Of a stretch of DNA of 34,306 nucleotides, positions 8,839 through 27,276 are shown piece by piece. The DNA is from a virus. Position 1 is the first letter of the stretch; each line of letters opens with the position of its first letter. The notes beneath the pieces are model-generated. The model made no database searches, was not told the origin of the DNA, and was given only the letters and a program-made list of their open reading frames with translations. The stretch lies in UHGV virus genome UHGV-0121572; one strand, written 5' to 3'. The translations under genes and the position numbers were made by a program.

Positions 8839-8858
8839 TACTGTAAATATAAACAGTG
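8839..8858. promoter_or_regulatory. LexA (SOS) box TACTGTAAATATAAACAGTG
   Basis: Exact match to CTGT-N8-ACAG with AT-rich spacer, ~40 bp upstream of ORF 8899..9087; a second partial half-site (…TATACAGTA) lies just downstream. Confidence 0.6.
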
Positions 8859-8898
8859 GTTATGTATACAGTATTGCTTTGGTGTTATAGGAGGAAAG

Positions 8899-9087: not shown

Positions 9088-9097
9088 GGTGACTTTT

Positions 9098-9490: not shown

Positions 9491-9916
9491 CTACTTAATT
9501 GAGTCCAGTAACAAGTTACAGTTACTCTCATTGTAGAGAGAACGAGCAATTAGTGTTACCTGCTTTCCATTCATTCCCGGCTTATCCCATAACACAGCTT
9601 CTTGCGACGCCACAAATTCAGCATAATCAATTATGCGTTGTTCGTGATCTGGTTCCTCATAGCCAAAGTATGAGAGCGCATCGTTGTAAGCGTGGTAAGC
9701 TGCTTTCTGTAATATCTTGATATCGGCTGTAGGTACTTGCTCCGTGTAGCTAGGATCTAATTGTGTGCTACTGCCATAGAATGCACATGAAAGGTAAGAT
9801 ATTGATTTCTGTTGAGCTTTAGTTCCTTTCTCATAGTTTTTAGCTGTTACCGCCTGAACTGGGACGCTAACAAAGCTTGCAACCAGAATTAAAATTAATA
9901 CGTAAAAGCTTTTCAT
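9491..9916 (-). CDS. Secreted/periplasmic protein of unknown function (141 aa), cargo (moron) candidate
   Basis: N-terminal signal peptide MKSFYVLILILVASFVSVPVQA with A-x-A-like cleavage site; GAGG RBS; opposite strand to flanking phage genes. Confidence 0.6.
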   Translation of the reverse strand: MKSFYVLILILVASFVSVPVQAVTAKNYEKGTKAQQKSISYLSCAFYGSSTQLDPSYTEQVPTADIKILQKAAYHAYNDALSYFGYEEPDHEQRIIDYAEFVASQEAVLWDKPGMNGKQVTLIARSLYNESNCNLLLDSIK

Positions 9917-11589: not shown

Positions 11590-11594
11590 TTATT

Positions 11595-12266
11595 ATGTTT
11601 AATGTTTCTAGGGTTGCTCCAGCCCCTGCCTGTTTAGCCCGTAAGACTTATAATGATCCTACGGTTGTTGCCGCGTTAAAAAGTATGTTCTTTGGTAAGT
11701 GTTATTTATGTGAGCAAGTTGATCTTACCGATCCAGAGATTGAGCATTTTACTCCTCATCAGGGCGATACATTGCTAAAATATAGCTGGGAGAATTTATT
11801 TTATTCTTGTCGTCGTTGTAATAGTATTAAAGGCACTCGACATACTAATATTCTAAATTGTACGGATTCCAGTGTAAATGTCACCAACGAGATTGTACAT
11901 ATATTACCGGGGATTAGCTCTGAAAGGGTAACTGTTCGTCCTTTTTCTTCAAATCCTAGCCAAGAGACATTAAATACAGTAGCGTTGCTTGATGAATGTT
12001 ATAATTTAGACAATACAGGTTTGCGTGGTATTACGCGAGAAAATTTAATGGAAAAAATTTTTGACCATTATTATGAGTATATAAATGTTAGACGAGTGCT
12101 GATCACTAGAACTAGTATACAGAGTAGAATCGATGAAGCTATTGAAACACTAAAAATAATGTGTAACCCAAAATATCCTTTTTCAGCGTTTTGGGTATGG
12201 CATTTTAAGCTCGATGTTCGGCTACATGAGTTACGGCCTGAGGTTTTAGAGGTTATTGACGTGTAG
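11595..12266 (+). CDS. HNH endonuclease (Septu PtuB-like nuclease candidate)
   Basis: CxxC…EH…N…CxxCN arrangement (…GKCYLCEQVDLTDPEIEHFTPHQG…WENLFYSCRRCNS…) typical of zinc-bound HNH nucleases; GGGGG RBS; co-oriented with upstream ATPase. Confidence 0.75.
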   Translation: MFNVSRVAPAPACLARKTYNDPTVVAALKSMFFGKCYLCEQVDLTDPEIEHFTPHQGDTLLKYSWENLFYSCRRCNSIKGTRHTNILNCTDSSVNVTNEIVHILPGISSERVTVRPFSSNPSQETLNTVALLDECYNLDNTGLRGITRENLMEKIFDHYYEYINVRRVLITRTSIQSRIDEAIETLKIMCNPKYPFSAFWVWHFKLDVRLHELRPEVLEVIDV

Positions 12267-12319: not shown

Positions 12320-13363
12320 TTATATGATACTACCGAACAATTCATAGGGGATAAAGTTGATAACTATTTGTCCCAGTCGATTATTTAATTCTTTCATTCG
12401 TTCTTGAAGGGGAATGAGTTCATTTCGCACAAAAACTCGACTCGCCTTCTCCACATCCCCAAATCCCCCGACATTATTTGGCATAATTCCCATCATCTGA
12501 GGCGGTACGCGGTGCGCAGCCATCATGTCATCGCGGCTGACATTTTTGATATTCAGAAACTCATCCTTCGCCGCGACCTCTGACAACGGGATAATCTGAA
12601 GCCCGTCTTTTTTGCCGTTAGGCGAGTACATAAACAGGTTGCGGAAGTTACCCGGTCCTTTGGCGCTTTTCATCGCGTTGCGGAGGTTGTTCACGTCCTC
12701 CTGGTTCTGCGCGGCATCGGTCATGTACATGATGAAGCCCGCATGACTGCCGTTAATGTAATACTTGCGACGGAACAGCGTGGCGGACTCATTGAGCAGG
12801 GCTGACGGAATAGCAGAAAGATAGCCGGGCAGGCCATAGATCTCCTGATTTATGTCCGGTTCCATCAGATGGAAAATGCTGCCTTTCGTGAACTGATACG
12901 GCTGCGTGGTCATGCCGTATTGCACAAACCAGTAGGTATCCAGGTCTAACCCGCGTCGGGTGTATTTTGCCAGCGCAGGTTCAAGGGCGATAACTTCACC
13001 GAAGCGGTTCGTGCGTTTCTCCAGATAGGCGTTACCAAATACCAGATAGTCCTGTACAAAACGCGAAAAAGCCTGTTGGCTGAGCAGCGGATGAGGGATA
13101 TAGGTACTGGTCAGAATGTTGCACTTTACTGCAATCGGGGAACTGTGATGCACGGCAGCGCGGAAGGTGCGCGCCAGTCCGTCAAAGCTGACGGGCGGCT
13201 CATACCAACGGTCCATCTGTACGCATTCCACATAGTCCAGTAATTCTCGGCGGTCCAGAACTGGAACGGGATCGCCGAAGCTGAATGCTTCGGCTGTAGT
13301 CTGGTTTTTATGCTGGATCTGATTCGTCGCCGCAGTGCGGTTTTTCTTACTCTTTCCCATCAA
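12320..13363 (-). CDS. Q: Portal protein (P2 gpQ family)
   Basis: 347-aa ORF in the conserved leftward Q-P pair, start overlapping the stop of the terminase ATPase gene; size and context match P2 Q. Confidence 0.85.
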   Translation of the reverse strand: MMGKSKKNRTAATNQIQHKNQTTAEAFSFGDPVPVLDRRELLDYVECVQMDRWYEPPVSFDGLARTFRAAVHHSSPIAVKCNILTSTYIPHPLLSQQAFSRFVQDYLVFGNAYLEKRTNRFGEVIALEPALAKYTRRGLDLDTYWFVQYGMTTQPYQFTKGSIFHLMEPDINQEIYGLPGYLSAIPSALLNESATLFRRKYYINGSHAGFIMYMTDAAQNQEDVNNLRNAMKSAKGPGNFRNLFMYSPNGKKDGLQIIPLSEVAAKDEFLNIKNVSRDDMMAAHRVPPQMMGIMPNNVGGFGDVEKASRVFVRNELIPLQERMKELNNRLGQIVINFIPYELFGSII

Positions 13364-15126
13364 AAAATCTCCACAATATTGCTGGTATTGGCGGACTCGC
13401 CCTGCAGCGGTTCGTTAAACAGTGCGTGCATCGTTGCCCAGGCCAGATCGGCGTGGCTGGCTTCTTCGCTGCGGCTGGCTTCATAGGTTGGGCGGTTGCC
13501 ACTGGCGGTGGTTGCGCGACGGATTGCCATGAATGACTGCGCAATGTCGGTGTGCCCGGCGTCAAACTCCAGACGGCGGTGGCTGATAATGTCGTAGGCC
13601 TTGAGTACCAGGGCGTTTTTAACGTTGGGGTTGTAGACAAACTCCCGGACGGCAGGAAAGAACGCTTTCACGTTCTCGTAAACCCCGTGACCAACGCCGG
13701 TTGAGTCGATACCGATATAAGTCACGTTGTACTGTTCGGTCAGTTTTTTGATGGCGTCAGCCTGGGCGCGAAAGTCCATTCCGCGCCACTGGTGACGCTC
13801 AAGAATGCGGAACTTGCCGCCCGGCACGGCTGGCGGAGCCACCACCACGCATCCGGCGCTGTCGCCATTCTGCGTACCTTTCGCCGGGTCATAACCGATC
13901 CATACTTCGCGCCAGCCAAACGGGCGCAGGGCCAGTGCATGAAAGTCAGTCCAGACTTCCCAGCTGTCTACCATGCACGCCTGCAGCTCGCTGAGCGGGA
14001 ACACGGACGCGAGATCGTCCACAAACTCGCACATCAGCAGGTTCTGGTATTCGTCCGGGCTGTACTCCATGCGCAACTGGTCAAGGTCGAACAGGTTACA
14101 GCCGCCGCGCACCGCATCTTCCACGGTGACTATCTGGCGGTATTGCCCGTCTGCGCACAGCAGGCCCGGGGCCAGATTGCTGTGGGACAGGTCGATGTCC
14201 ACCTTATCGGCTTTGTTGCGCCCACGGTTGAACAGCGCACCGGACCAGAACGGATAAGCACTGTGGGTCAGGCTGGATGGCGTGGAAAAATAGGTTTGTC
14301 GCCATTTTTTGTGAATAGCCATACCGGAAGCCACTTTGCGCAGCTCCTGGAATTTCGGTATCCAGAAATATTCATCCAGATACAGGTTGCCGTGGTAACT
14401 CTGGGCCGTGCGGGCATTGGTGCCGAGGAAGTAAAGCGTGGCCCCGTTAGGAAGCACCATCGGATCGCCTTTCAGCTCCACCTCGACTTCTTTGGCGAAG
14501 TCGATGATGTACTGCTTAAAGACGTGAGCCTGTGCCTTACTGGCAGAAAGGAAAATCTGGTTACGTCCGGTCAGCAGGGCGTCAATCAGGGCTTCACGGG
14601 CAAAGTAAAAGGTCGCGCCGATCTGGCGTGACTTCAGCAGGTTGCGGATGCGGTTGGTTTTTCCGGCTTCCCACCAGTGGCGCTGGTAGTTGAACATGGA
14701 GGAATGGAAGATTTCCTCCAGCTTTTCAATCTGTTCATCGGTGAAAACGTTCTTTTCCGGCTGACGACGCGGGCCTTTGTTGCGGTTGGCGACGTTAGGG
14801 TTTAAGTCGGCTTCGTTGCCGCCATTGTTAAACTTGCCGATCCGCGCATGGCGCTCCGACTGGCGCGCCAGCAGGTCAATCTCTTTGAAATCTTTCCCTT
14901 CTTTGTGCTCCTTCATAATGAGCTGGCAGTAGCGGGCGGCGGTGGTGAGCTGCATCTGATCCAGCGGCCCATAGTCACCCCACTTGTCGCGTTTCTTCCA
15001 GCTGTGAACGGTTGCAACTTTCTCGCCCAGCATTTCAGCAATGCGGGCTACGCGGTATCCCTGAAAGTACAGCAGCATGGCCTGCCGACGGGGATCGAGA
15101 TCTGCGGGTGTCAGTGTGGTGTTCAT
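13360..15126 (-). CDS. P: Terminase large (ATPase) subunit (P2 gpP family)
   Basis: 588-aa ORF divergent from the O-N-M-L operon; typical P2 P size and position. Confidence 0.85.
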   Translation of the reverse strand: MNTTLTPADLDPRRQAMLLYFQGYRVARIAEMLGEKVATVHSWKKRDKWGDYGPLDQMQLTTAARYCQLIMKEHKEGKDFKEIDLLARQSERHARIGKFNNGGNEADLNPNVANRNKGPRRQPEKNVFTDEQIEKLEEIFHSSMFNYQRHWWEAGKTNRIRNLLKSRQIGATFYFAREALIDALLTGRNQIFLSASKAQAHVFKQYIIDFAKEVEVELKGDPMVLPNGATLYFLGTNARTAQSYHGNLYLDEYFWIPKFQELRKVASGMAIHKKWRQTYFSTPSSLTHSAYPFWSGALFNRGRNKADKVDIDLSHSNLAPGLLCADGQYRQIVTVEDAVRGGCNLFDLDQLRMEYSPDEYQNLLMCEFVDDLASVFPLSELQACMVDSWEVWTDFHALALRPFGWREVWIGYDPAKGTQNGDSAGCVVVAPPAVPGGKFRILERHQWRGMDFRAQADAIKKLTEQYNVTYIGIDSTGVGHGVYENVKAFFPAVREFVYNPNVKNALVLKAYDIISHRRLEFDAGHTDIAQSFMAIRRATTASGNRPTYEASRSEEASHADLAWATMHALFNEPLQGESANTSNIVEIF

Positions 15127-15172
15127 GGCACAAACCTACAGCCTTGAATGAAGGCTTTCCCCGCCTGCGGTT

Positions 15173-15190
15173 TGTGTGGTTGTCGGTACA
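15173..15190. promoter_or_regulatory. Late-promoter activator site (TGT-N12-ACA, Ogr/B-type) in the P/O divergent intergenic region
   Basis: TGTGTGGTTGTCGGTACA centred ~87 bp upstream of the O start; P2/186 late promoters use a TGT-N12-ACA dyad bound by the zinc-finger activator Ogr/B. Confidence 0.45.
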
Positions 15191-15268
15191 AATACCGCGC
15201 ATTGTTTCACTACCCCCATCACCGCAACCATAAGGCTCCAGTAAGTTTTTTCTAACGGAGCACGGCTC

Positions 15269-16102
15269 ATGACAGTGAAAGCAAAGCGTTTTCGCATCGG
15301 GGTGGAAGGTGCCACCACCGACGGACGCGAAATCCAGCGTGAATGGCTGGAACAGATGGCAGCCAGCTACAACCCGGCGGTGTATACCGCGCTGATTAAC
15401 CTTGAGCACATCAAGTCTTATCTGCCGGACAGCACCTTTAACCGCTACGGCAAGGTGACGGCGCTGTTTGCTGAAGAAATAACGGAAGGTCCGCTGGCAG
15501 GAAAGATGGCGCTGTATGCCGATGTTGAGCCAACGGAGTCCCTGGTGGAGCTGGTGAAAAAAGGCCAGAAATTATTCACCTCTATGGAAGTCAGCCCGAA
15601 GTTTGCTGATACGGGCAAAGCCTACCTGGTCGGCCTGGCTGCCACTGATGACCCTGCCAGTCTGGGTACGGAAATGCTGACATTCAGCGCCAGTGCAGCC
15701 CATAACCCGCTGGCAAACCGCAAGCAGAATCCCGCCAATCTCTTTACCGCTGCAGAGGAAACGGTGATCGAACTGGAAGAAATCCAGGACGACAAACCGT
15801 CCCTGTTTGCCCGCGTCACGGCGCTGTTTACCAAAAAAGAGCAGTCAGACGATGCCCGGTTCTCTGATGTGCATAAGGCCGTGGAGCTGGTCGCCACTGA
15901 GCAGCAAAACCTGAGCGGACGCACCGAAAAATCCCTGTCTGAGCAGGAAGAACGCCTGTCTGAGCTGGAGACTGCTCTGCAGGAGCAGCAAACCGCCTTT
16001 AACGAACTGGTGAATAAGCTGAGTCATGAAGACAGCCGCCAGGACTACCGCCAGCGTGCAACAGGCGGTAACGCCCCCGCTGACACTCTGACCAATTGCT
16101 GA
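15269..16102 (+). CDS. O: Capsid scaffolding protein (P2 gpO family)
   Basis: N-terminus (…RFRIGVEGATTDGREI…NLEHIKSYLPD…) and LVGLAATDDPASLGTE block match P2 O as recalled. Confidence 0.9.
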   Translation: MTVKAKRFRIGVEGATTDGREIQREWLEQMAASYNPAVYTALINLEHIKSYLPDSTFNRYGKVTALFAEEITEGPLAGKMALYADVEPTESLVELVKKGQKLFTSMEVSPKFADTGKAYLVGLAATDDPASLGTEMLTFSASAAHNPLANRKQNPANLFTAAEETVIELEEIQDDKPSLFARVTALFTKKEQSDDARFSDVHKAVELVATEQQNLSGRTEKSLSEQEERLSELETALQEQQTAFNELVNKLSHEDSRQDYRQRATGGNAPADTLTNC

Positions 16103-16118
16103 TGGAGCACAAAACCCG

Positions 16119-17177
16119 ATGAAGAAGAATACCCGCTTTGCTTTTAACGCTTATCTGCAGCAGCTGGCGCGTCTGAACGGTGTGGCAGTTGAAGAACTGT
16201 CCAGCAAGTTCACCGTAGAGCCGTCTGTGCAGCAGACGCTGGAAGACCAGATCCAGCAGTCCGCCTCTTTCCTGACGCTGATTAACGTCACGCCAGTGAC
16301 TGAGCAGTCTGGTCAGTTGCTGGGGCTGGGTGTTGGCAGCACCATTGCCGGAACCACTGATACCGCAGCTAAAGAGCGTGAGCCTGTCGATCCGACGCTG
16401 ATGGTCGATGTGGAATATAAATGCGAGCAGACCAACTTTGACACGGTGCTGACCTACGCGAAGCTGGATCTGTGGGCGAAGTTTCAGGATTTCCAGGTGC
16501 GCATCCGTGACGCCATCGTGAAACGTCAGGCACTGGACCGCATCATGATCGGCTTTAACGGCGTGAAGCGTGCGAAAACCTCCAACCGTAGCGAAAACCC
16601 GCTGCTGCAGGATGTGAATAAAGGCTGGCTGCAGAAAATCCGTGAGGATGCACCGGATCACGTCATGGGCAGCACCACCACGGGCGGTGAAACCACACCG
16701 GGCGCAGTGAAAGTCGGGAAAGGTGGCGAATATGCCAACCTGGACGCGGTGGTGATGGATGCCGTCAATGAGCTTATCGACGTGGTCTACCAGGACGATG
16801 ACGATCTGGTGGTGATTTGCGGGCGTGAACTGCTGTCTGACAAGTATTTCCCGCTGGTCAACAAAGAGCAGGAAAACAGTGAAAAACTGGCTGCCGATAT
16901 GATCATCAGTCAGAAACGCATGGGTGGCCTGCAGGCGGTGCGTGCGCCGTTCTTCCCGCCGAATGCACTGCTGATCACCCGTCTGGATAACCTGTCCATC
17001 TACTGGCAGGAAGATACCCGCCGCCGTTCAGTTATCGACAACCCGAAACGTGACCGGATTGAAAATTTTGAATCCGTTAACGAAGCCTATGTGGTTGAGG
17101 ACTACCGCTGCGCTGCACTGGTGGAAAACATCCAGATTGGTGACTTCAGCGCCGCCGCAGCAGAAACCGGAGCGTAA
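16119..17177 (+). CDS. N: Major capsid protein (P2 gpN family)
   Basis: Strong recalled similarity to P2 N (…RFAFNAYL…FTVEPSV…NKEQENSEKLAADMIISQKR…ENFESVN…). Confidence 0.9.
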   Translation: MKKNTRFAFNAYLQQLARLNGVAVEELSSKFTVEPSVQQTLEDQIQQSASFLTLINVTPVTEQSGQLLGLGVGSTIAGTTDTAAKEREPVDPTLMVDVEYKCEQTNFDTVLTYAKLDLWAKFQDFQVRIRDAIVKRQALDRIMIGFNGVKRAKTSNRSENPLLQDVNKGWLQKIREDAPDHVMGSTTTGGETTPGAVKVGKGGEYANLDAVVMDAVNELIDVVYQDDDDLVVICGRELLSDKYFPLVNKEQENSEKLAADMIISQKRMGGLQAVRAPFFPPNALLITRLDNLSIYWQEDTRRRSVIDNPKRDRIENFESVNEAYVVEDYRCAALVENIQIGDFSAAAAETGA

Positions 17178-17180
17178 TTC

Positions 17181-17831
17181 ATGAGCCTGAGTCCCGCACG
17201 GCAGCATCGCCTGCGCGTTCAGGCTGAACAGGCCGCTCGCGAGGGGGGCAGTGTTCGCCACGCGTCGGGCTATGACCTGATGCTGCTGCAACTGGCGGAA
17301 GACCGCCGCCGTCTCAAGGGCGTTCAGTCCACGGTCAAAAAAGCGGAAATCAAGGTGGAGCTGCTGCCGAAATATGCCGCCTGGGCGGAGGGCGTTCTGG
17401 CTGCCGGAGGCGCTCAACAGGATGACGTGCTGATGTACGTGATGCTGTGGCGCATTGATGCTGGAGATTATGCCGGGGCGCTGGAGATCGGGCGTCATGC
17501 CCTGCGTCATGGCTGGGTGATGCCGCTGGGTAACCGCAACGTGCAGACCGTGCTGGCAGAGGAAATGGCAGACGCGGCGCAGAGCGCAATGCTTGCCGCC
17601 ACCGGCTTTGATGCCGATCTGTTGCTGCAGACGCTGGAGCTGACAGACGGTCTGGATATGCCGGACCAGTCACGGGCGCGTCTGCATAAAGCGATTGGCG
17701 CTGTCCTGAGTGAAAGCAACCCGGCTTCCGCCCTTAATCATCTCAACCATGCGTTACAGCTCGATCCCCGCTGTGGCGTGAAAAAAGACAAACAGCAGCT
17801 GGAGCGCAGACTGCGCAATGACAGCCGCTGA
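17181..17831 (+). CDS. M: Terminase small/endonuclease subunit (P2 gpM family)
   Basis: 216-aa ORF directly after N in the conserved O-N-M-L order. Confidence 0.8.
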   Translation: MSLSPARQHRLRVQAEQAAREGGSVRHASGYDLMLLQLAEDRRRLKGVQSTVKKAEIKVELLPKYAAWAEGVLAAGGAQQDDVLMYVMLWRIDAGDYAGALEIGRHALRHGWVMPLGNRNVQTVLAEEMADAAQSAMLAATGFDADLLLQTLELTDGLDMPDQSRARLHKAIGAVLSESNPASALNHLNHALQLDPRCGVKKDKQQLERRLRNDSR

Positions 17832-17926
17832 CAGAACGTGCCCCCGCGCACGGGCGGCACGGGGTGGCGAAAGGCACTGCCACATCAAAACCCCGTCCAC
17901 CGCCCTCTATTTCAGGAGAAAGCAGC

Positions 17927-18391
17927 ATGAAGTTTGTTGCGCCAGAACAGGCACCGGAACAGGCGGAAATCATCAGAAACACGCCGTTCTGGCCTGATGT
18001 GGACCTGTCGGAGTTTCGCAGTGTCATGCGCACTGACGGCACGGTGACGCAGCCGCGTTTAAAGCAGGTTGCGCTGTCGGCAATTTCGGAGGTCAACGCA
18101 GAGCTGTATGAGTTTCGCAGACGTCAGCAGATGCTGGGATATGCCTCGCTGGCAGAGGTTCCGGCTGAACAGCTGGACGGCAAAAGTGAGCGCATTCATC
18201 ACTATTTCAACGCGGTTTACTGCTGGGCGCGCGCCATGCTCAACGAGCGTTATCAGGACTATGACGCCACGGCATCCGGTGTGAAGCGGGGCGAGGAACT
18301 GGCGGAAGCAAGCGGTGATTTGTGGCGTGACGCCCGCTGGGCCATCAGCCGGGTGCAGGATGCGCCGCACTGCACAGTGGAGCTTATCTGA
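17927..18391 (+). CDS. L: Head completion/stabilisation protein (P2 gpL family)
   Basis: ORF 17864..18391; ATG at 17927 with AGGAGA RBS (MKFVAPEQ…); conserved position after M. Confidence 0.8.
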   Translation: MKFVAPEQAPEQAEIIRNTPFWPDVDLSEFRSVMRTDGTVTQPRLKQVALSAISEVNAELYEFRRRQQMLGYASLAEVPAEQLDGKSERIHHYFNAVYCWARAMLNERYQDYDATASGVKRGEELAEASGDLWRDARWAISRVQDAPHCTVELI

Positions 18392-18594
18392 TGAAAGTGC
18401 GTGCGCATCAGTATGACACGGTGGACGCGCTTTGCTGGCGTCATTACGGGCGCACGCAGGGTGTCACGGAGCAGGTACTGAAGGCAAATCCGGGGCTTGC
18501 CGAATACGGCCCCTTTTTACCTCACGGGCTGCAGGTGGAGTTGCCGGACATTCCGACCACCACCACCGTGCAGACCGTCCAGCTATGGGACTGA
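18391..18594 (+). CDS. X: Tail protein X (P2 gpX family)
   Basis: 67-aa ORF (same length as P2 X), start overlapping the L stop. Confidence 0.7.
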   Translation: MKVRAHQYDTVDALCWRHYGRTQGVTEQVLKANPGLAEYGPFLPHGLQVELPDIPTTTTVQTVQLWD

Positions 18595-18597
18595 ATT

Positions 18598-18813
18598 ATG
18601 ACGCTGGAGCGAATCAGCGCCTTTATCACGTATTGCATCGCCGTCGTGCTGGCCTGGCTGGGCGATTTGTCCATCAAGGATGCCTCAACGCTGGGCGGCC
18701 TGATGATTGGTGTGCTGATGCTGGCTATCAACTGGTACTACAAACACAAAGCCTACCAGCTTCTGCGCGACGGGCAGATCTCGCGGGAGGACTATGAATC
18801 CATCAATCGTTAA
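18598..18813 (+). CDS. Putative holin (small two-TM protein, gpY position)
   Basis: 71 aa with two hydrophobic segments and a charged C-terminus; immediately precedes the endolysin gene. Confidence 0.6.
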   Translation: MTLERISAFITYCIAVVLAWLGDLSIKDASTLGGLMIGVLMLAINWYYKHKAYQLLRDGQISREDYESINR

Positions 18814-19306
18814 ACGCTGCCTTGTCGGGGCCGTGCTGGCTATTGCTGCCACGCTGCCGGGTTTTCAGCAGCTTCACACCTCCGTGGAAGGGCTGAAACT
18901 GATTGCCGATTACGAAGGTTGTCGTCTGCAGCCGTATCAGTGCAGCGCGGGTGTCTGGACCGACGGCATTGGTAATACGTCGGGCGTCATTCCCGGCAAA
19001 ACCATTACGGAGCGACAGGCAGCAGAAGGGCTGATCTCCAACGTGCTGCGTGTGGAGCGGTCACTGGAAAGGTGTGTGAAGCAACAGCCACCGCAGAAAG
19101 TGTATGACGCGGTGGTGTCATTTGCCTTCAACGTGGGGACAGGCAATGCCTGCAGCTCCACGCTGGTGAAATTGCTCAATCAGCGGCGCTGGGCGGATGC
19201 GTGCCGACAGTTGCCGCGCTGGGTGTATGTAAAAGGTGTGTTTAATCAGGGGCTGGATAACCGCCGTGCGCGGGAGATGGCCTGGTGTTTACAGGGAGCA
19301 AACTGA
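18794..19306 (+). CDS. Endolysin, T4-lysozyme-like (GH24) with N-terminal signal-anchor-release (SAR)-like segment
   Basis: Hydrophobic N-terminus CLVGAVLAIAATLPG then a YEG…GVWTDGIGNT block resembling the GH24 catalytic region. Confidence 0.75.
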   Translation: MNPSIVKRCLVGAVLAIAATLPGFQQLHTSVEGLKLIADYEGCRLQPYQCSAGVWTDGIGNTSGVIPGKTITERQAAEGLISNVLRVERSLERCVKQQPPQKVYDAVVSFAFNVGTGNACSSTLVKLLNQRRWADACRQLPRWVYVKGVFNQGLDNRRAREMAWCLQGAN

Positions 19307-19307
19307 A

Positions 19308-19685
19308 ATGAAAAAGAAATTAATCAGCGGACTGTTTCTGATGTTATGGATGGCGCTGTTAATCGCAGCAATGGTGTATCCGCAGGGGATTTTTCCGGTA
19401 CTGGCAGCGTCCGGCGTTTGGGTAGCCTGTTTGCTGACATGGGCGGTAATTCCGGTAGCACTGGCTGCGTTAATTAAGAATGGCCTGCTCTGGCAGGAGT
19501 TAAGGGCATCTTTGCTGAAGACAATTACCCGAAAAGAAAACGTATTTATCAGTTGGGTGATGCGATTGCTGATTGTTGTAAGTCTCGCCTGGACGGGGTG
19601 GGCTATTACCCTGGTCTTTTATCTACTGACCGTTATTGCCTTCTGGATCACCCGTAATCAGATGGCGCAACAGGTAGCAGCATGA
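19308..19685 (+). CDS. lysA: LysA-like lysis accessory membrane protein (multi-TM)
   Basis: ORF 19236..19685; ATG at 19308 (MKKKLISGLFLMLWMALLIAAMV…) gives 125 aa with about four hydrophobic segments; P2 lysA position. Confidence 0.55.
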   Translation: MKKKLISGLFLMLWMALLIAAMVYPQGIFPVLAASGVWVACLLTWAVIPVALAALIKNGLLWQELRASLLKTITRKENVFISWVMRLLIVVSLAWTGWAITLVFYLLTVIAFWITRNQMAQQVAA

Positions 19686-20110
19686 ATCGGTTGCTGCTGG
19701 TTGTGCTGGCGTTATTACTGGCGGCGCTGGGCTGGCAGACGTGGCGGCTGGCTGATGCCAGCCAGACCATTAGCACGCAGGCAGACGAGCTGCAGAGCAA
19801 AAGCCAGTCACTGGCAAAGAGCAACAGCCAGCTTATCAGCCTGGCCATTCTGACTGAAACCAATAACCGGGAGCAGGCGCGGCTCTATGCCGAAGCAGAA
19901 CAGACCAGCGCGCTGCTGAGACAACGACAACACCGGATCGAGGAACTGAAACGTGAGAACGAGGATTTACGCCGCTGGGCTGATACTCCTTTGCCTGCTG
20001 ACATTATCCGGCTGCGGGAACGTCCGACGCTCACCGGAGGTGCAGCTTACCGTCAGTGGTTGTCCGCGAGTGACGCCGTGTCGGCTGGAGCAGGCAACGC
20101 CACGCACTAA
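19682..20110 (+). CDS. lysB: i-spanin (Rz-like, P2 LysB equivalent)
   Basis: N-terminal TM anchor MNRLLLVVLALLLAALGW followed by a charged coiled-coil-like periplasmic domain. Confidence 0.7.
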   Translation: MNRLLLVVLALLLAALGWQTWRLADASQTISTQADELQSKSQSLAKSNSQLISLAILTETNNREQARLYAEAEQTSALLRQRQHRIEELKRENEDLRRWADTPLPADIIRLRERPTLTGGAAYRQWLSASDAVSAGAGNATH

Positions 20111-20243
20111 CGGTGATCTGGACGCGTTGCTGGATGAAACGGAGGCCGCCTGGGCGGTCTGTGCAGACAAAGTGGACATGATTATTGCGTGTCAGGAGCG
20201 AAACAGTGAACAAACCACAATCCCTGCGCCACGCCCTCAATAA
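19953..20243 (+). CDS. lysC: o-spanin lipoprotein (Rz1-like, P2 LysC equivalent) overlapping lysB out of frame
   Basis: Lipobox LTLSGC after a signal peptide (MRTRIYAAGLILLCLLTLSGCG); starts inside lysB in another frame and extends past its stop, as in P2 lysB/lysC. Confidence 0.6.
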   Translation: MRTRIYAAGLILLCLLTLSGCGNVRRSPEVQLTVSGCPRVTPCRLEQATPRTNGDLDALLDETEAAWAVCADKVDMIIACQERNSEQTTIPAPRPQ

Positions 20244-20637
20244 AGCGGTGCCTTATGTCCGCAATAACCCGGACAAACTGCATCTGTTTGTGGATAACGG
20301 TTCGCTGGTTGCCACGGGGGCCAGCTCCATGTCGTGGGAGTACCGTTACACCCTGAACGCGGTGATTGAGGATTTCAGCGGCGACCAGAATCTGCTGATG
20401 GCCCCGGTTTTGCTGTGGCTGAGGAATAACCAGCCCGATGCCATCAATAACCCGGCGTTACGGGAAAAACTATTCACCTTTGAGGTGGATATTCTGCGCA
20501 ACGATGTCTGTGATATCAGCCTGAACCTGCAACTGACGGAACGTGTGCTGGTCAGCACTGACGGCAGTGTGTCGAGCGTTGAAGCTGTAGCGGAACCCGA
20601 TGAACCTGAAGAAATGTGGACGGTGAAACGTGGCTGA
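20206..20637 (+). CDS. R: Tail completion protein R (P2 gpR family)
   Basis: ORF 20185..20637 (TTG); GTG at 20206 with AGGAG RBS gives an N-terminus (…KPQSLRHALNKAV…NPDKLHLFVDNGS…) aligning with P2 R as recalled. Confidence 0.8.
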   Translation: MNKPQSLRHALNKAVPYVRNNPDKLHLFVDNGSLVATGASSMSWEYRYTLNAVIEDFSGDQNLLMAPVLLWLRNNQPDAINNPALREKLFTFEVDILRNDVCDISLNLQLTERVLVSTDGSVSSVEAVAEPDEPEEMWTVKRG

Positions 20638-21076
20638 ACTGCAGAAAGTGGACGACTGGCTGAGTGCTTTGTTGGCGAATCTGGAACCAGCCGCCAGAAG
20701 CCGCATGATGCGCCAGCTGGCGCAGGAACTGCGCCGGACACAGCAGCAGAATATCAGGATGCAGCGCAACCCTGACGGCAGCAGCTATGAACCGCGACGG
20801 GCAACAGCACGCAGTAAAAAGGGGCGCATCAAACGTCAGATGTTTGCAAAGCTGCGCACCACAAAATACCTGAAAACTGCCGCCAGCGCCGACTCTGCCA
20901 GCGTGCAGTTTGAAGGTAAGGTGCAGCGCATTGCCCGTGTTCACCATTACGGCTTGCGCGATCGCGTCAGTCGCAAAGGACCTGAGGTCCGTTACGCAGA
21001 GCGTCGCCTTCTGGGTGTAAATGATGATGTTGAGGCAATGACCCGCGACATGATTCTGCAATGGCTGGCGGGGTGA
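20630..21076 (+). CDS. S: Tail completion protein S (P2 gpS family)
   Basis: 148-aa ORF overlapping the R stop; conserved R-S pair. Confidence 0.8.
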   Translation: MAELQKVDDWLSALLANLEPAARSRMMRQLAQELRRTQQQNIRMQRNPDGSSYEPRRATARSKKGRIKRQMFAKLRTTKYLKTAASADSASVQFEGKVQRIARVHHYGLRDRVSRKGPEVRYAERRLLGVNDDVEAMTRDMILQWLAG

Positions 21077-21080
21077 TCTT

Positions 21081-21098
21081 TGTATCAGCACTGATACA
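21081..21098. promoter_or_regulatory. Late-promoter activator site (TGT-N12-ACA) upstream of V
   Basis: TGTATCAGCACTGATACA, a perfect 9-bp-arm palindrome, centred ~55 bp upstream of the V start codon in the S-V intergenic gap. Confidence 0.45.
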
Positions 21099-21144
21099 AG
21101 TTGCAGCTCTGTCGCCTTTCTTCCCCTGATGGCAACCTTTCCCT

Positions 21145-21723
21145 ATGAACGCACAATTAACCGAAATCATGCGCCTTATCACCAACCTGATCCGCTCAGG
21201 TGTAGTCACCGAAGTGGACAGGGCAAACTGGCTGTGTCGGGTGAAAACTGGCGACCTTGAAACCAACTGGATTAACTGGCTGACGCTGCGCGCGGGTAAT
21301 GCCCGCACATGGTGGAAACCATCGGAAGGTGAGCAGGTGGTGCTGCTGAGTCTGGGCGGCAATCTGGAGACCGCCTTTGCGCTGCCCGCTGTCTATTCGA
21401 ATCAGTTCGCACCACCGTCGACGTCGGCGGACGCCTGCGTGACAGAACATCCTGACGGTGGCTGGTTTGAATACGAACCCGCCACCGGGCGCTGGTATGT
21501 CAGGGGCATCAAATCAATGGTCATTGAGGCCGCTGACAACATCACCATGAAAACCAGTGAGTTTGTACTGGAGGCTGACCGCACGCGCATTAACAGCGAA
21601 GTTGTGATCAATGGTGGCGTTACCCAGGGCGGCGGAGCGATGAGTTCTAACGGGATCGTGGTTGATGCACATCAGCATACTGGCGTCCTGAAAGGCGGCG
21701 ACACAACCGGAGGCCCGGTATGA
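21145..21723 (+). CDS. V: Baseplate spike/assembly protein V (P2 gpV family)
   Basis: 192-aa ORF first in the V-W-J-I-H-G operon; Gly-rich C-terminal part typical of gpV spike proteins. Confidence 0.85.
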   Translation: MNAQLTEIMRLITNLIRSGVVTEVDRANWLCRVKTGDLETNWINWLTLRAGNARTWWKPSEGEQVVLLSLGGNLETAFALPAVYSNQFAPPSTSADACVTEHPDGGWFEYEPATGRWYVRGIKSMVIEAADNITMKTSEFVLEADRTRINSEVVINGGVTQGGGAMSSNGIVVDAHQHTGVLKGGDTTGGPV

Positions 21724-22079
21724 CGCTTTATAGCGGGATGAACAATACCAGCGGTAAAGCCATTACTGATATTGACCATCTGCGCCAGTCGGTGCGGGAC
21801 ATTCTGCTGACACCGCAGGGTAGCCGCATTGCCCGTCGTGAATATGGTTCCCTGCTGTCGGCACTGATAGACCAGCCACAAAATCCGGCATTACGCCTGC
21901 AGGTCATGTCGGCAGTGTATGTGGCGCTGAGTCGCTGGGAGCCACGGCTGACGCTGGATTCCATAACCATCAACAGCAATTTTGACGGTTCTATGGTGGT
22001 GGAGCTGGCCGGGCGGCGGAATAACGGTGTGCCTGTGTCCCTTTCCGTATTAACAGGAGCAGAGAATGGCAGTGATTGA
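21720..22079 (+). CDS. W: Baseplate protein W (gpW/gp25 family)
   Basis: 119-aa ORF overlapping the V stop; conserved order. Confidence 0.85.
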   Translation: MTLYSGMNNTSGKAITDIDHLRQSVRDILLTPQGSRIARREYGSLLSALIDQPQNPALRLQVMSAVYVALSRWEPRLTLDSITINSNFDGSMVVELAGRRNNGVPVSLSVLTGAENGSD

Positions 22080-22974
22080 CCTTTCGCAGTTGCCTGCGCC
22101 GCAGATTGTGGATGTGCCGGACTTTGAGACGCTGCTTGCTGAACGCAAGGCAGAATTTGTGGCACTTCATCCGAAAGATGAGCAGGAAGCAGTGATGCGT
22201 ACGCTGGAACTTGAATCTGAACCCGTTACCAAATTGTTGCAGGAGAACGCTTACCGTGAGTTGCTTCTGCGCCAGCGCATTAACGAAGCCGCGCAGGCGG
22301 TGATGGTGGCTTATGCCATAGGGGGCGATCTGGACCAGCTCGCCGCCAATTACAACGTGAAACGCCTGACGGTGACACCTGCTGATGATGACGCTGTGCC
22401 GCCCGTTGCGGCAGTGATGGAAAGCGATGAAGCGTTACGCCTGCGTGTGCCTGCAGCCTTTGAAGGGCTTTCGGTTGCGGGGCCAACAGCAGCTTATGAA
22501 TTTCATGCCCGAAGCGCCGACGGTCGGGTGGCGGATGCCAGTGCAACCAGTCCGGCACCTGCAGAGGTGGTGCTGACTGTCCTTAGCCGCGAAGGCGACG
22601 GAACAGCAGAAAAAGACTTGCTGGATGTGGTGGAAAAAGCCCTGAACAGTGAGAACGTCCGTCCGGTGGCTGACCGTCTGACGGTTCGCAGCGCAGAAAT
22701 CATCCCGTACCGTGTGGAAGCCACCATTTTTCTTTATCCGGGACCGGAAGCAGAGCCGGTAATGGCAGCGGCAAAAGTCAGCCTGCAGAGGTACATCGCC
22801 AGTCAGACGCGGCTCGGTCGGGATATTCGCCGTAGTGCTATTTTTGCCGCGCTGCATGTTGAAGGTGTTCAACGTGTGGAACTGGCTTCTCCGCTGGCGG
22901 ATGTGGTTCTGAACAAAAGGCAGGCGGCATCATGTACGCAGTGGAGCGTGACCAACGGAGGAACGGATGAATAG
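22066..22974 (+). CDS. J: Baseplate assembly protein J
   Basis: 302-aa ORF; conserved order and size. Confidence 0.85.
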   Translation: MAVIDLSQLPAPQIVDVPDFETLLAERKAEFVALHPKDEQEAVMRTLELESEPVTKLLQENAYRELLLRQRINEAAQAVMVAYAIGGDLDQLAANYNVKRLTVTPADDDAVPPVAAVMESDEALRLRVPAAFEGLSVAGPTAAYEFHARSADGRVADASATSPAPAEVVLTVLSREGDGTAEKDLLDVVEKALNSENVRPVADRLTVRSAEIIPYRVEATIFLYPGPEAEPVMAAAKVSLQRYIASQTRLGRDIRRSAIFAALHVEGVQRVELASPLADVVLNKRQAASCTQWSVTNGGTDE

Positions 22975-23572
22975 TCTGCTGCCACCGGGTTCAACTTCAC
23001 TGGAGCGCCGACTGGCGCAGACCTGTAGCGGGATTTCTGATCTGCAGGTGCCGCTGCGTGACTTGTGGAATCCGGCAACCTGTCCGATCAGTTTCCTGCC
23101 TTATCTCGCCTGGGCGTTCTCTGTGGATCGCTGGGACGAGGGCTGGACAGAAAGCGTCAAGCGCCAGGTGGTGAAGGATGCTTTTTATATTCATCAGCAT
23201 AAAGGAACCACCAGTGCCGTGCGGCGGGTGGTGGAGCCGTTCGGCTTCCTGATACGCATTATTGAGTGGTGGCAGACTGGAGAAACACCGGGCACGTTTC
23301 GCCTGGACATCGGCGTGCAGGACCAGGGCATCACTGAAGATACCTATCTGGAACTTGAGCGGCTGATAAGCGATGCCAAACCATGTAGCCGTCACATGAT
23401 CGGCATGTCCATCAATCTGCAAACCAGTGGCCCGCACTGGGTAGGGGCCGCCAGCTATCTTGGTGAAGAAATCACGATCTATCCGTATATCAACGAAACA
23501 ATTATTTCTGGCGGCACCGCGCATGAAGGCGGGGCGGTCCATGTTATTGACACAATGAGAGTGAATCCATGA
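22967..23572 (+). CDS. I: Tail protein I (baseplate)
   Basis: 201-aa ORF; conserved order. Confidence 0.8.
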   Translation: MNSLLPPGSTSLERRLAQTCSGISDLQVPLRDLWNPATCPISFLPYLAWAFSVDRWDEGWTESVKRQVVKDAFYIHQHKGTTSAVRRVVEPFGFLIRIIEWWQTGETPGTFRLDIGVQDQGITEDTYLELERLISDAKPCSRHMIGMSINLQTSGPHWVGAASYLGEEITIYPYINETIISGGTAHEGGAVHVIDTMRVNP

Positions 23573-25098
23573 GCACAAAATTTTATACCCTGCTGACGGA
23601 TATTGGCGCGGCGAAACTTGCCAGCGCCGCCGCGCTCGGTGTGCCGTTAAAAATTACCCATATGGCGGTCGGCGATGGCGGCGGAACATTACCAACGCCG
23701 GACGCAAAGCAGACTGCACTGGTAAATGAGAAACGCCGGGCTGCGCTGAATATGCTCTATATCGACCCGCAAAACAGCAGCCAGATTATTGCTGAACAGG
23801 TGATCCCTGAAAACGAGGGCGGTTGGTGGATACGTGAAGTGGGCCTGTTTGATGAATCCGGGGCATTGATTGCCGTGGGCAACTGCCCGGAAAGCTATAA
23901 GCCGCAACTGGCTGAAGGCAGCGGGCGCACCCAGACCGTGCGCATGGTGTTGATTACCAGCAGCACGGACAATATCACCCTGAAAATCGACCCTGCCGTC
24001 GTGCTGGCAACCCGCAAGTATGTGGATGATAAGGTACTGGAGCTGAAGGTGTACGTGGATGATCAGATGGCAAAACATCTTGCAGCACCGGACCCGCATT
24101 CACAGTATGCACCCAAAGAAAGTCCTACGTTTACCGGGACACCCAAAGCGCCAACGCCAGCGGCGGGGAATAATACCACGCAGGTTGCGACCACCGCGTT
24201 TGTTCAGGCGGCACTGACGGCTCTTATTAATGGTGCGCCAGCCACGCTGGACACGCTGAAAGAAATTGCCGCAGCCATAAACAATGACCCGAAATTCAGT
24301 ACCACCATTAACAATGCGCTGGCACTGAAAGCGCCGCTGTCGAGTCCGGCACTCACCGGAACGCCAACCGCACCGACTGCGGCACAGTCGGTCAACAATA
24401 CACAGATTGCCACCACGGCATTTGTGAAATCGGCGATTGCGGCAATGGTGGGTTCTGCACCTGCGGCACTGGATACACTGAACGAACTGGCGGCGGCGCT
24501 GGGGAATGACCCGAACTTTGCCACGACAATGCTTAATGCACTGGCAGGTAAACAACCGCTGGACAATACGCTGACTAATTTGAGTGGAAAGGATGTTGCT
24601 GGTCTTCTCGCATACCTTGGTTTGGGAGAAGGTTCTGCATTACCTGTAGGAGTACCAGTTCCGTGGCCTTCAGCCACTCTGCCGACAGGCTGGTTGAAAT
24701 GCAATGGCGCTGCCTTTGATAAGGTTAAATATCCCCGTCTTGCTACAGCATATCCATCAGGGAAACTACCTGATCTCCGTGGTGAGTTTATTCGTGGCTG
24801 GGATGACGGACGAGGCGTTGATGCTGGACGTGCTTTATTGAGCATTCAGACTGGGATGCTGGAAAAACATCGCCATATTGTTGTTGCCAACGATGGGTAT
24901 GATTCAAAAGAGGAATGGGAACTGGCGACAATCTTCAGAAGAGCATACACGCAAGGCCGGGGGCTTGATGCTGCTGATGTCGGAGGGACTCTGATTCCAT
25001 CACCAACGCTACATACACGAGGGAGTATTGGTAACACAGGTGGAAGCGAAACCCGTCCGCGAAATATTGCATTTAACTTTATCGTGAGGGCTGCATAA
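23569..25098 (+). CDS. H: Tail fibre protein H
   Basis: 509 aa; internal repeats (TGTPxAPT…NNTQxATTAFV…APAxLDTLxExAAAxxNDPxF) typical of P2-type tail fibres; distal C-terminal part of the Mu S / P1 S type. Confidence 0.85.
   Translation: MSTKFYTLLTDIGAAKLASAAALGVPLKITHMAVGDGGGTLPTPDAKQTALVNEKRRAALNMLYIDPQNSSQIIAEQVIPENEGGWWIREVGLFDESGALIAVGNCPESYKPQLAEGSGRTQTVRMVLITSSTDNITLKIDPAVVLATRKYVDDKVLELKVYVDDQMAKHLAAPDPHSQYAPKESPTFTGTPKAPTPAAGNNTTQVATTAFVQAALTALINGAPATLDTLKEIAAAINNDPKFSTTINNALALKAPLSSPALTGTPTAPTAAQSVNNTQIATTAFVKSAIAAMVGSAPAALDTLNELAAALGNDPNFATTMLNALAGKQPLDNTLTNLSGKDVAGLLAYLGLGEGSALPVGVPVPWPSATLPTGWLKCNGAAFDKVKYPRLATAYPSGKLPDLRGEFIRGWDDGRGVDAGRALLSIQTGMLEKHRHIVVANDGYDSKEEWELATIFRRAYTQGRGLDAADVGGTLIPSPTLHTRGSIGNTGGSETRPRNIAFNFIVRAA
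24605..24630. other. gix/hix-like 26-bp recombination site inside H (junction of constant and variable fibre parts)
   Basis: TTCTCGCATACC-TT-GGTTTGGGAGAA: imperfect palindrome around a 2-bp core, resembling Hin/Gin/Cin invertase crossover sites (recalled consensus …AAACC-nn-GGTTT…). Confidence 0.4.
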
Positions 25099-25700
25099 TG
25101 GATAACGCTGTATTAAATAGCGAGCTTATTGCCACGAAGGCGGGGAATATTACTGTCTATAACTATGATGGCGAAACACGGGAATATATTTCCACTTCAA
25201 ATGAATATCTTGCCGTTGGTGTCGGTATCCCGGCATATTCCTGTTTAGATGCTCCTGGCACATATAAGGCTGGTTATGCAATCTGCCGTTCAGTAGATTT
25301 AAACTCATGGGAATATATGCCAGACCATCGCGGTGAAATTATCTATAGCACCGAAACAGGAGAAGCAAAAGAAATCACGGTGCCGGGTAATTATCCTGAA
25401 AATACAACCACTATCGCCCCGTTAACGCCATACGATAAATGGGATGGTGAGAAATGGGTGACGGATACCGAGGCACAGCATAGCGCCGCAGTAGACGCAG
25501 CAGAAGCACAGCGTCAGTCACTGATTGATGCTGCAATGGCTTCCATTAGTCTGATTCAGTTGAAATTGCAGGCCGGGCGGAAGCTGATGCAGGCAGAGAC
25601 CACCCGACTTAACACTGTGCTGGATTACATCGATGCGGTGACGACAACGGATACCAGCACTGCGCCGGATGTCATCTGGCCTGAACTGTCGGAGGCGTAG
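25098..25700 (+). CDS. G: Tail fibre assembly protein G (Tfa family)
   Basis: 200 aa; C-terminus …LDYIDAVTTTDTSTAPDVIWPE characteristic of Tfa/gpG/U chaperones. Confidence 0.8.
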   Translation: MDNAVLNSELIATKAGNITVYNYDGETREYISTSNEYLAVGVGIPAYSCLDAPGTYKAGYAICRSVDLNSWEYMPDHRGEIIYSTETGEAKEITVPGNYPENTTTIAPLTPYDKWDGEKWVTDTEAQHSAAVDAAEAQRQSLIDAAMASISLIQLKLQAGRKLMQAETTRLNTVLDYIDAVTTTDTSTAPDVIWPELSEA

Positions 25701-25702
25701 GT

Positions 25703-25852
25703 CATTCAATATCTGGAGCACGGGGTGTATCGACCAGTTCTAGTGCATCCAGATAACTCACCCACGAATTATATTGTTCCAGTTCGCCACCTTTCAGGCG
25801 ATAAATAGCTGCTTTATCAGACCATTGCTTACTGTTTATAAACTCGTTAGCC
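25703..25852 (-). pseudogene. Remnant of an inverted-orientation alternative tail fibre assembly gene (G')
   Basis: My - strand translation gives …KQWSDKAAIYRLKGGELEQYNSWVSYLDALELVDTPRAPDIE*, which matches the Tfa C-terminal motif; only ~50 codons, no start. Confidence 0.5.
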
Positions 25853-25943
25853 TAGTCTATTCGCAGTTGTTTCTCTGCTTCGGTAGCAACCACAATCTCA
25901 TATAAATTAAACTAATAAGTTTTTATTAAAAGTAAGATAGATG

Positions 25944-25966
25944 CCACCATTTTATATAAATGGTGG
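25944..25966 (-). terminator. Stem-loop (possible terminator) just downstream of the orphan 290-aa gene
   Basis: CCACCATTT-TATAT-AAATGGTGG perfect 9-bp stem; on the - strand followed by a moderately U-rich stretch. Confidence 0.3.
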
Positions 25967-25973
25967 TTCGCAG

Positions 25974-26846
25974 TTAACTAGCATGTAATAAGTTGAACAG
26001 GTTTTTAGTTACTTCGTTTTTAGTACTAAAAAACATATCTTTAAGGTCCGGTAATGCAAAGGCAGCATTTTGGTCATTCGGTACAACAATAGGAGGCTCA
26101 TATCCGTTGTCATACATTTTCTTTAAAGCGGCTACTATTTTTGTCTGATTTTGACTGAATTCTTTCATGTCAATAAAAATTTCTCCAGATAGGGTCCCAT
26201 CATCTTCACGTAGTATCGCTGGTTTGACACGACATATCTGATCCATTTCTCCAGTAGAAAAACCGGCAATCGCTGCATTAAATAACAAAGATGAAGTAGC
26301 CCATTTTTCATATAGTTTTTTGATAGCCATGCTTCTGATTTTTTTATCGTTGATATATCCAATGCCACTGGCCAAAACTTCGGTTAATGGATTTTCCCCG
26401 CGAATTACTCCAGACCAATAGTTGTGCATCCAGGGCGCATTTTGCTCAAGCGGAGAGCCGAGATAATCAGTGATCCACTCTGAGTCCACCTCTGTAAAGT
26501 TCAAACCATGAAAATCAATTTCTGCAATAGTGTTTTTATAGTTTTGATTTAAACCCCAACGGTCAATTGCTATTTCAGCCATTTCTTTTGTTTTGAATAG
26601 ATATATTCCGGTTAGGCGGGAAACTTTATCTCTGAAATTGTCTGAGCGTACCTTTTCAAGAGCTAACTCATTTTGTAATTTTTCATTGTGATTATCTGAT
26701 AAGTATTTTCTTACTAGATTGTAGAACCAAATAGATACTCCAAACTCACTTTTATAACAGATTGATTCAATTCTTCCTATTGCAACCTCCCAGGCAACAA
26801 TTGGATTGTTTAAATTTAAGTAAGCATATAGTTTTCTCTGTTCCAT
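25974..26846 (-). CDS. Orphan hypothetical protein (290 aa), AT-rich cargo gene between G and FI
   Basis: Long ORF with own AAGGA RBS and stop codons upstream in frame; noticeably lower G+C than flanking tail genes; no motif I can assign. Confidence 0.7.
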   Translation of the reverse strand: MEQRKLYAYLNLNNPIVAWEVAIGRIESICYKSEFGVSIWFYNLVRKYLSDNHNEKLQNELALEKVRSDNFRDKVSRLTGIYLFKTKEMAEIAIDRWGLNQNYKNTIAEIDFHGLNFTEVDSEWITDYLGSPLEQNAPWMHNYWSGVIRGENPLTEVLASGIGYINDKKIRSMAIKKLYEKWATSSLLFNAAIAGFSTGEMDQICRVKPAILREDDGTLSGEIFIDMKEFSQNQTKIVAALKKMYDNGYEPPIVVPNDQNAAFALPDLKDMFFSTKNEVTKNLFNLLHAS

Positions 26847-26983
26847 TTTTATTTTCCTTATAGATGCTATGAAGGTTATTATTACATAAATGTTCGATAA
26901 ATGTTTTTAAGTTTTAACTTCGTTTCGGTGCCAATAAATATACATTACAAGTGAAATTTATCAAGGTAACAAAAGGAGAGCTA

Positions 26984-27276
26984 ATGCTAATAGGCTATGT
27001 ACTCCAATGGGCCGTTTCTTTTTTCATGTCATGGGTGCCCTGGCTGAAATGGAACGCGAACTGATAGTTGAACGTACCAGGGCGGGGCTTGCTGCAGCTC
27101 GCGCCAAAGGCAGAGTAGGTGGACGCCGTCCTAAGTTGACCATCGAACAGTGGGCACAGATTGGACGCTTACTCGAGGCCGGAGAATCAAGACAGCGTAT
27201 TGCACTGATTTTTGATGTGGGTGTTTCCACAATTTATAGAAAATTTCCGGCAAATAAGAGTAATGAATCTCCCTGA
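26984..27276 (+). pseudogene. Serine DNA invertase (Hin/Gin/Pin/Cin family) with internal deletion/frameshift
   Basis: ATG at 26984 with AAAGGAGAG RBS encodes MLIGYV (canonical invertase N-terminus) then goes out of frame; ORF 27007..27276 encodes only the C-terminal half (…FHVMGALAEMERELIVERTRAGLAAARAKGRVGGRRPKL…VGVSTIYRKF); the catalytic-serine region is missing. Confidence 0.75.

Follow-up and report, generated by a model that had tools for sequence, protein, structure and literature searches.

The virus genome UHGV-0121572 was analyzed as one stretch of 34,306 nucleotides, here called the window, and the subject of this report is a 290-codon open reading frame (ORF) that it carries between the tail fiber assembly gene G and the sheath gene FI. 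The gene was acquired horizontally as accessory cargo (a "moron") by a prophage of the P2-like type (Peduoviridae) and is transcribed against the late tail operons; the N-terminal domain of its product has the predicted fold of an ADP-ribosyltransferase (ART). The gene and its own signals are listed here.

25974..26846, minus strand: ORF for a 290-amino-acid ART-fold protein (BC2332/DUF2441-like), ATG start, stop codon included (ORF listing of the window, homologues, substitution rates, AlphaFold model)
26854..26859, minus strand: ribosome-binding site AAGGAA, 7 nt 5′ of the ATG (read from the sequence)
25944..25966, minus strand: terminator-like hairpin downstream of the stop codon (folding compared with shuffled sequences)
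26937..26964, minus strand: best sigma-70-like promoter candidate, TTGATA-16-TATATT, a 10/12 match (promoter scan)

The hairpin begins 7 nt past the stop codon; its perfectly paired 9-bp stem is capped by a 5-nt loop. Its free energy is −11.8 kcal/mol (z = −4.0), and no shuffled sequence folded equally well. It is conserved in L007, a metagenomic P2-like contig whose protein is 87% identical to that of the window, and the hairpins of the window, of L007, and of the Citrobacter locus L004 all fold with z values of ≤−4. The post-gene hairpin keeps its position in Citrobacter (L004 8871-8925), with a sequence that differs from the E. coli and L007 copies (window 25925-25976). The promoter candidate lies within a 137-bp AT-rich divergent region that separates the gene from the start of a neighboring invertase reading frame; promoter-like sites in that region were no more numerous than expected from shuffled sequences, and the site stands as a candidate only.

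Composition sets the gene apart from its surroundings. The GC content is 0.357 in the ORF and 0.344 in the cassette that contains it, compared with 0.508 for the window and 0.52 to 0.56 for the neighboring structural genes, and across the region it dips to 0.28 to 0.42. An initial annotation of this DNA had described a 290-amino-acid ORF on the opposite strand with its own ribosome-binding site and a 9-bp stem-loop, and had called it richer in AT than its neighbors; both descriptions held. The interval that it gave, 25701 to 27006, was read as the gene plus AT-rich flanks. The gene is there, but the flanks also take in the remnant of an assembly gene (about 25703-25897) and the first 20 nt of an invertase pseudogene.

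The ORF is conserved as a protein. A search of 5.8 billion proteins returned 104 homologues at an E value of ≤1e-3, all labeled "hypothetical," from Citrobacter, Yersinia, Pantoea, Vibrio, Moritella, Aeromonas, Betaproteobacteria, Nitrospirota, and other sources. The ratio of nonsynonymous to synonymous substitution rates (dN/dS) was 0.15 between the window and E. coli strain C4, 0.11 against L007, and 0.11 against Citrobacter (overall range, 0.10 to 0.15). The number of homologues and these low ratios show that the ORF did not arise by chance and that the gene is real, with purifying selection acting on it. A profile search of 1.84 billion representatives extended the family to 519 clusters at an E value of ≤1e-3, 143 of them at ≤1e-30. 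Nearly all relatives are about 270 to 310 amino acids long, and the 150 best are stand-alone proteins with no evident domain fusions. The PHROGs scan matched only phrog_5663 and phrog_9842, two function-unassigned families, on residues 40 to 160, and none of 50,697 phage records was matched by tblastn.

Sequence-based family searches gave little for the window protein itself. Pfam and NCBIfam scans returned no match (none in Pfam at an E value of ≤1), and searches of PDB by sequence and profile were empty apart from a marginal match to BC2332 of Bacillus cereus (PDB 2aua; DUF2441), with phmmer E values of 0.06 to 0.13. DUF2441 was matched weakly by 27 of 58 relatives (best E value, 3.2e-5). 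The AlphaFold model built from the family alignment had a predicted local distance difference test score (pLDDT) of 94.2 and a predicted template modeling score (pTM) of 0.90. With this model, 2aua was the sole match kept from a Foldseek search of PDB; matches to porphobilinogen deaminase had probabilities of <0.1 and were discarded. The predicted structure contains the ART core fold, a split β-sheet with flanking helices, and resembles the BC2332-like structure in three dimensions. Matches at the level of the fold include PARP13, IcmQ, Tpt1, RES, MbcT, Rhs-Tre, Tne2, and Tse6. The model divides the protein into two domains.

26352..26846, minus strand: N-terminal domain with ART-like fold, about residues 1 to 165
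25977..26351, minus strand: C-terminal α/β domain, about residues 166 to 290, specific to the family

On the basis of the predicted structure, assignment of the N-terminal domain to the BC2332/DUF2441-like ADP-ribosyltransferase fold is solid. Judged by sequence, the family is a sister to DUF2441 (PF10386) and not a member of it by the Pfam criterion. The protein shares only 17 to 20% sequence identity with BC2332, and it differs from BC2332 in carrying an extra 125-residue C-terminal domain that is without a known relative. DUF2441 has been placed in the ART clan by Pfam (PMC7955679), SCOP classifies "BC2332-like" as d.166.1.6 within the ADP-ribosylation superfamily (PMC3000352), and ProFunc matched BC2332 to diphtheria toxin active-site templates (PMC3024214). 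In the literature on DUF2441, PF10386, and BC2332, we found classification and no functional study. The initial annotation had regarded the gene as a true orphan without a motif and had suggested profile and Foldseek searches; these led to 2aua and the ART fold, and with 519 clusters in the family the orphan label no longer applies.

Seventeen residues are invariant in the family (W19, E20, G24, R25, S38, E60, E64, R67, R77, F84, D121, S122, W139, Y143, E156, G161, and G163). They are concentrated in the N-terminal 165 residues, and the mean column identity is 62% in the N-terminal part compared with 43% in the C-terminal part. Alignment and model place R77, S122, and E156 in the order and secondary-structure setting of an R-S-E triad: R77 stands just before strand 81-84 and helix 87-96, S122 ends strand 107-121 and is followed by a helix, and E156 starts strand 155-165. 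R77, E156, and the helix motif E60-x3-E64-x2-R67 are common to the family and BC2332; S122 is without a counterpart there, where the position is Gly. R77, S122, and E156 are described here as putative catalytic residues.

The position of the gene is that of a known P2 cargo gene. A Pfam scan identified the neighbors in the window as the fiber gene H (Phage_tail_fib and Collar), the assembly gene G (Caudo_TAP), and the sheath gene FI. In the P2 annotation the order is H, G, a terminator, fun(Z) on the minus strand, the pF promoter, and FI, so that the window gene matches fun(Z) in both position and orientation; the initial annotation had placed the ORF in the P2 Z/fun slot. The two genes have in common the G-FI slot, the orientation against the tail operons, and the character of AT-rich foreign cargo (PMC3091744). 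They differ in their products: P2 Fun(Z), the T5 exclusion protein, has 528 amino acids and the window protein has 290, and the comparison with Fun(Z) that the initial annotation had suggested gave no sequence similarity (BLASTP E value of 1.9), so homology was rejected. The Z/fun slot has been described as a hotspot that mixes fiber swaps, invertases, and defense-like cargo (PMC3091744).

Comparison with other carriers of cargo in the G-FI region found the same gene at the fiber-switch slot in L007, Citrobacter, and E. coli C4. Further relatives occupy a wide range of settings, given here with their protein identity to the window.

Moritella (46%) and Aeromonas (44%): interval from replication gene A to the portal gene in P2-like prophages
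Yersinia enterocolitica (49%): final gene in an HP1/P2-like prophage, following the fiber genes
Pantoea (48%) and IMG/VR contig L020 (32%): next to an Ogr gene, a fragment of a portal gene, and a large ATPase (AAA_15/AAA_21)
Vibrio cincinnatiensis (46%): single-gene cassette in the chromosome 2 superintegron, with VCR-like repeats at its borders, among ParDE and Phd-ParE cassettes
Nitrospirota metagenome-assembled genome (40%) and Candidimonas (37%): small islands that also contain toxin-antitoxin genes, a DNA methylase, and fragments of integrases or resolvases
Lambdoid phage L019 (31%): 7989-8921, between the small and large terminase genes

The locus between gpA and the portal gene is the old/tin hotspot, shown by Rousset et al. 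to be a reservoir of anti-phage systems (PMC9122126). The Moritella copy has a PLD/NgoFVII-type nuclease alongside. The lambdoid relative lies on the late-gene strand, in a setting unlike the P2-like slots. In the ten contexts compared there was no conserved neighbor, antitoxin gene, or chaperone gene, and we take this to mean that the gene works alone.

In 4 of about 10 contexts, one of them outside the P2 slot, a serine recombinase (Resolvase) gene or fragment adjoins the family member or lies close to it (L015 11356-11739, Candidimonas; also L004 and L007). The gene and the invertase may sometimes travel together, or their proximity may be coincidental.

In the window, the gene is surrounded by the remains of a fiber switch.

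About 25703..25897, minus strand: C-terminal remnant of an inverted second tail fiber assembly gene from a former invertible segment (pseudogene annotation and alignments)
26984..27276, plus strand: pseudogene of a Cin/Gin/Hin-type DNA invertase, ATG at 26984 (Pfam and alignments)
24605..24631, plus strand: left crossover site (cix/gix-like) inside fiber gene H, TTCTCGCATACCTTGGTTTGGGAGAAG, an exact match to the left arm of the inverted repeat in UMNK88

The intact form of this device is present in a prophage of the same type in E. coli UMNK88, which has H and G, then a chaperone and a gp53-like alternative tip that are both inverted, and a 189-amino-acid recombinase. Of its 27-nt inverted crossover sites, one is within H and the other is at the 5′ end of the alternative tip. 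The assembly gene remnant, which aligns with the intact UMNK88 and L007 loci and is an annotated pseudogene in the identical E. coli locus (RefSeq), meets the cassette at a deletion junction at about 25897-25925. The invertase pseudogene was aligned with the intact UMNK88 recombinase and with strain C4. Twenty nucleotides past its ATG, an internal deletion of ~300 nt (junction at ~27003/27004) fuses this short 5′ piece, out of frame, with the C-terminal part, which survives as an ORF at 27007-27276 and matches Resolvase positions 109 to 144 and HTH_7 in Pfam. The window holds no partner arm for the left crossover site; the right-hand site has been deleted. In strain C4 the left junction is the same as in the window, and the invertase has a smaller deletion of about 170 nt and a premature stop (L002 4428-4970). 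Differing invertase deletions next to an identical left junction indicate that the fiber switch decayed stepwise while the cargo gene stayed intact. The cassette was found in 7 of 5,426 complete E. coli genomes, always in the G-FI slot and always with a dead invertase.

The relatives with a working switch show how the gene was placed. In L007 and in Citrobacter sedlakii (60% identical), the gene adjoins and is divergently transcribed from an intact invertase, of 183 and 185 amino acids, respectively. L007 also retains the alternative tip and the second chaperone. Both of its crossover sites are present, the right one between the terminator of the gene and the alternative tip. The insertion of the ~1.05-kb cassette, comprising the terminator, the ORF, and the AT-rich promoter region, was therefore into the small gap that separates the crossover site from the ATG of the invertase, a position not within the invertible segment. 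For the E. coli lineage, the alignments indicate that a subsequent deletion took out the crossover site and the alternative tip along with most of the second chaperone, and that the invertase was internally deleted too. Phase-variable expression, with the gene inside the invertible segment, was considered and rejected, as the L007 crossover site separates the gene from the alternative tip. The initial annotation had assigned the gene to the slot of a Mu-like invertible segment; a segment of the Cin/Gin type was indeed once present and has decayed, but where relatives have kept the switch intact, the gene is found outside that segment. The gene adjoins a switch of the Cin/Gin/Hin kind found in P1, Mu, and P2-like phages, intact in UMNK88 and L007 with crossover sites of 26 bp, but is not a part of that switch and has outlived it in E. 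coli. The cargo is kept while the phage's own host-range switch decays.

We propose that the product is a cytoplasmic two-domain protein carried as lysogenic-conversion cargo, a self-contained NAD+-using enzyme that would be expressed in the lysogen and would shield it from other phages. The N-terminal domain would bind and activate NAD+ through R77, S122 (or D121), and E156 and would go on to modify a macromolecule of the phage or the host by ADP-ribosylation, or would simply consume NAD+. The more variable C-terminal domain may recognize a target or trigger and may keep the enzyme harmless in uninfected cells. We give this reading, a self-contained NAD-dependent ART-type anti-phage effector protecting the lysogen, a probability of roughly 0.45.

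What makes the gene a good defense candidate is that it recurs, as a single gene, in slots where P2-like phages carry anti-phage genes. There is precedent for defense by ADP-ribosylation in DarTG and CmdTAC, and CmdTAC has been reported from P2 hotspots. No defense protein hidden Markov model in PADLOC-DB v2 matched the protein (0 families at an E value of ≤10), with the same library recognizing the Septu PtuA/PtuB pair elsewhere in the window as a positive control. DarTG needs a macrodomain antitoxin and CmdTAC/PD-T4-9 an antitoxin and a chaperone, whereas the window gene has no conserved partner and its product resembles DarTG and CmdTAC at the level of the fold only. An integron-defense preprint does not mention the family. 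The suggestion of the initial annotation that this is a single-gene defense candidate is strengthened by its context (gpA-portal hotspot, integron cassette, toxin-antitoxin and defense islands, no conserved partner) and not by any known defense model; since no such model matches, the defensive role is one that we infer. A more specific version is possible but doubtful: a new single-polypeptide anti-phage system in which a BC2332-like ART domain would be restrained and triggered by its own new C-terminal domain, with no antitoxin, and which would have spread over Proteobacteria by way of P2-like phages, lambdoid phages, and integron cassettes. We consider the gene to encode a candidate effector of the ART superfamily at a phage hotspot, with a single-protein architecture that has so far gone undescribed.

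The same fold could instead serve the phage. T4 Alt, ModA, and ModB are phage ART enzymes and AcrF11 is an ART anti-CRISPR, and the gene product may likewise be a counter-defense or host-takeover factor and not a protector of the lysogen. We consider this unlikely, as in P2-like phages the gene runs against the late operons with its own signals, like lysogenic-conversion genes such as fun(Z), and homologues are not confined to phages but occur also in an integron cassette on a chromosome and in toxin-antitoxin islands, where phage counter-defense would be of no obvious use.

It is also unlikely, in our estimate, that the ART-like fold performs other chemistry or no ADP-ribosylation, as a NAD- or nucleotide-binding regulator, an RNA 2′-phosphotransferase-like enzyme, or a factor in invertase function or fiber switching. 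Inactive or divergent ART folds exist, with PARP13, IcmQ, and Tpt1 among the fold matches here, and the middle residue of the triad is not common to BC2332; however, the 17 invariant residues, including an R...S...E set in canonical order, count against this reading. A link to the invertase is consistent with the divergent arrangement of the two genes in three lineages and with the Resolvase fragment two genes away in Candidimonas, but most other contexts are without an invertase, and in E. coli purifying selection on the gene persists after loss of the invertase, the crossover site, and the alternative tip.

A role as an addiction toxin that stabilizes the prophage or cassette, or as a virulence or inter-bacterial factor, seems quite improbable. 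Such a toxin would have its antidote in the C-terminal domain or in an unannotated small gene. Toxin-antitoxin modules do neighbor the gene in the Vibrio integron and the Nitrospirota island, and many relatives by fold are toxins (RES, MbcT, Rhs-Tre, Tne2, and Tse6). However, an adjacent antitoxin ORF was conserved in none of the 10 contexts, and the flanks of the gene in the window measure only 137 nt and about 50 nt. RES-domain and NAD-targeting toxins (ParT, MbcT, Res, Tne2/Tse6, and Rhs TreTu/TreX) have cognate antitoxin or immunity genes or delivery domains, and match scores to them were too low for family membership. Neither a signal peptide nor a delivery domain, of the Rhs/PAAR kind or any other, is present in the window protein, and its 150 best relatives stand alone. 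There is a small chance that none of the readings considered here is right.

A virion component, either an alternative fiber tip or a chaperone of the invertible segment, is effectively refuted: its sole support is the position within the remains of that segment, while the ORF gave no Caudo_TAP, Gp53-like, collar, or other Pfam fiber or chaperone match (H and G match at 1e-65 and 1e-29), has an unrelated, ART-like fold, lies in L007 outside a segment that keeps its own tip and chaperone, and has family members in integrons and non-phage islands, in agreement with the initial annotation, which had held that it does not look like a fiber.

The rest of the window is that of a P2-like prophage with cargo in a second location. 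The structural module (13000-25700) is 95.7% identical over 98% of its length to "Klebsiella phage Kp48xx-2" records, which indicates a Peduoviridae backbone common to several enterobacterial genera. The other cargo hotspot, corresponding to the P2 old/tin slot, is bounded by replication gene A (6332-8746) and by the portal gene (12320-13363) and contains a complete Septu system (10366-12266, plus strand). Genes in this hotspot and at the prophage end are as follows.

10366-11589, plus strand: PtuA of Septu (PADLOC E value, 1.5e-124)
11595-12266, plus strand: PtuB of Septu (PADLOC E value, 2.6e-83)
9026-9331, plus strand: DinI-like gene in the gpA-portal hotspot (Pfam E value, 1.3e-22)
9491-9916, minus strand: 141-amino-acid ORF in the gpA-portal hotspot, no Pfam or PADLOC match
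1258-2457: integrase
2698-3354: CI repressor
732-1217, minus strand: 161-amino-acid ORF beyond the integrase and CI repressor, no Pfam or PADLOC match

The last of these may represent additional cargo, located at the end of the prophage.

For the BC2332/DUF2441 branch of the ART superfamily, a crystal structure has been available since 2005 but no function, and the sister family described here offers a tractable entry point, a 290-amino-acid stand-alone E. coli gene in phage loci where cargo is often antiviral. If the gene is defensive, it would be an ART effector without an antitoxin, unlike DarTG and CmdTAC, and with a new sensor or regulatory domain; if it does act as a single-polypeptide system, this would be the first function for the BC2332/DUF2441 branch. 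If it is not defensive, it still represents an uncharacterized enzyme family that moves between phages, integrons, and islands. The locus also shows selected cargo being retained while an invertase, a crossover site, and an alternative fiber tip decay around it.
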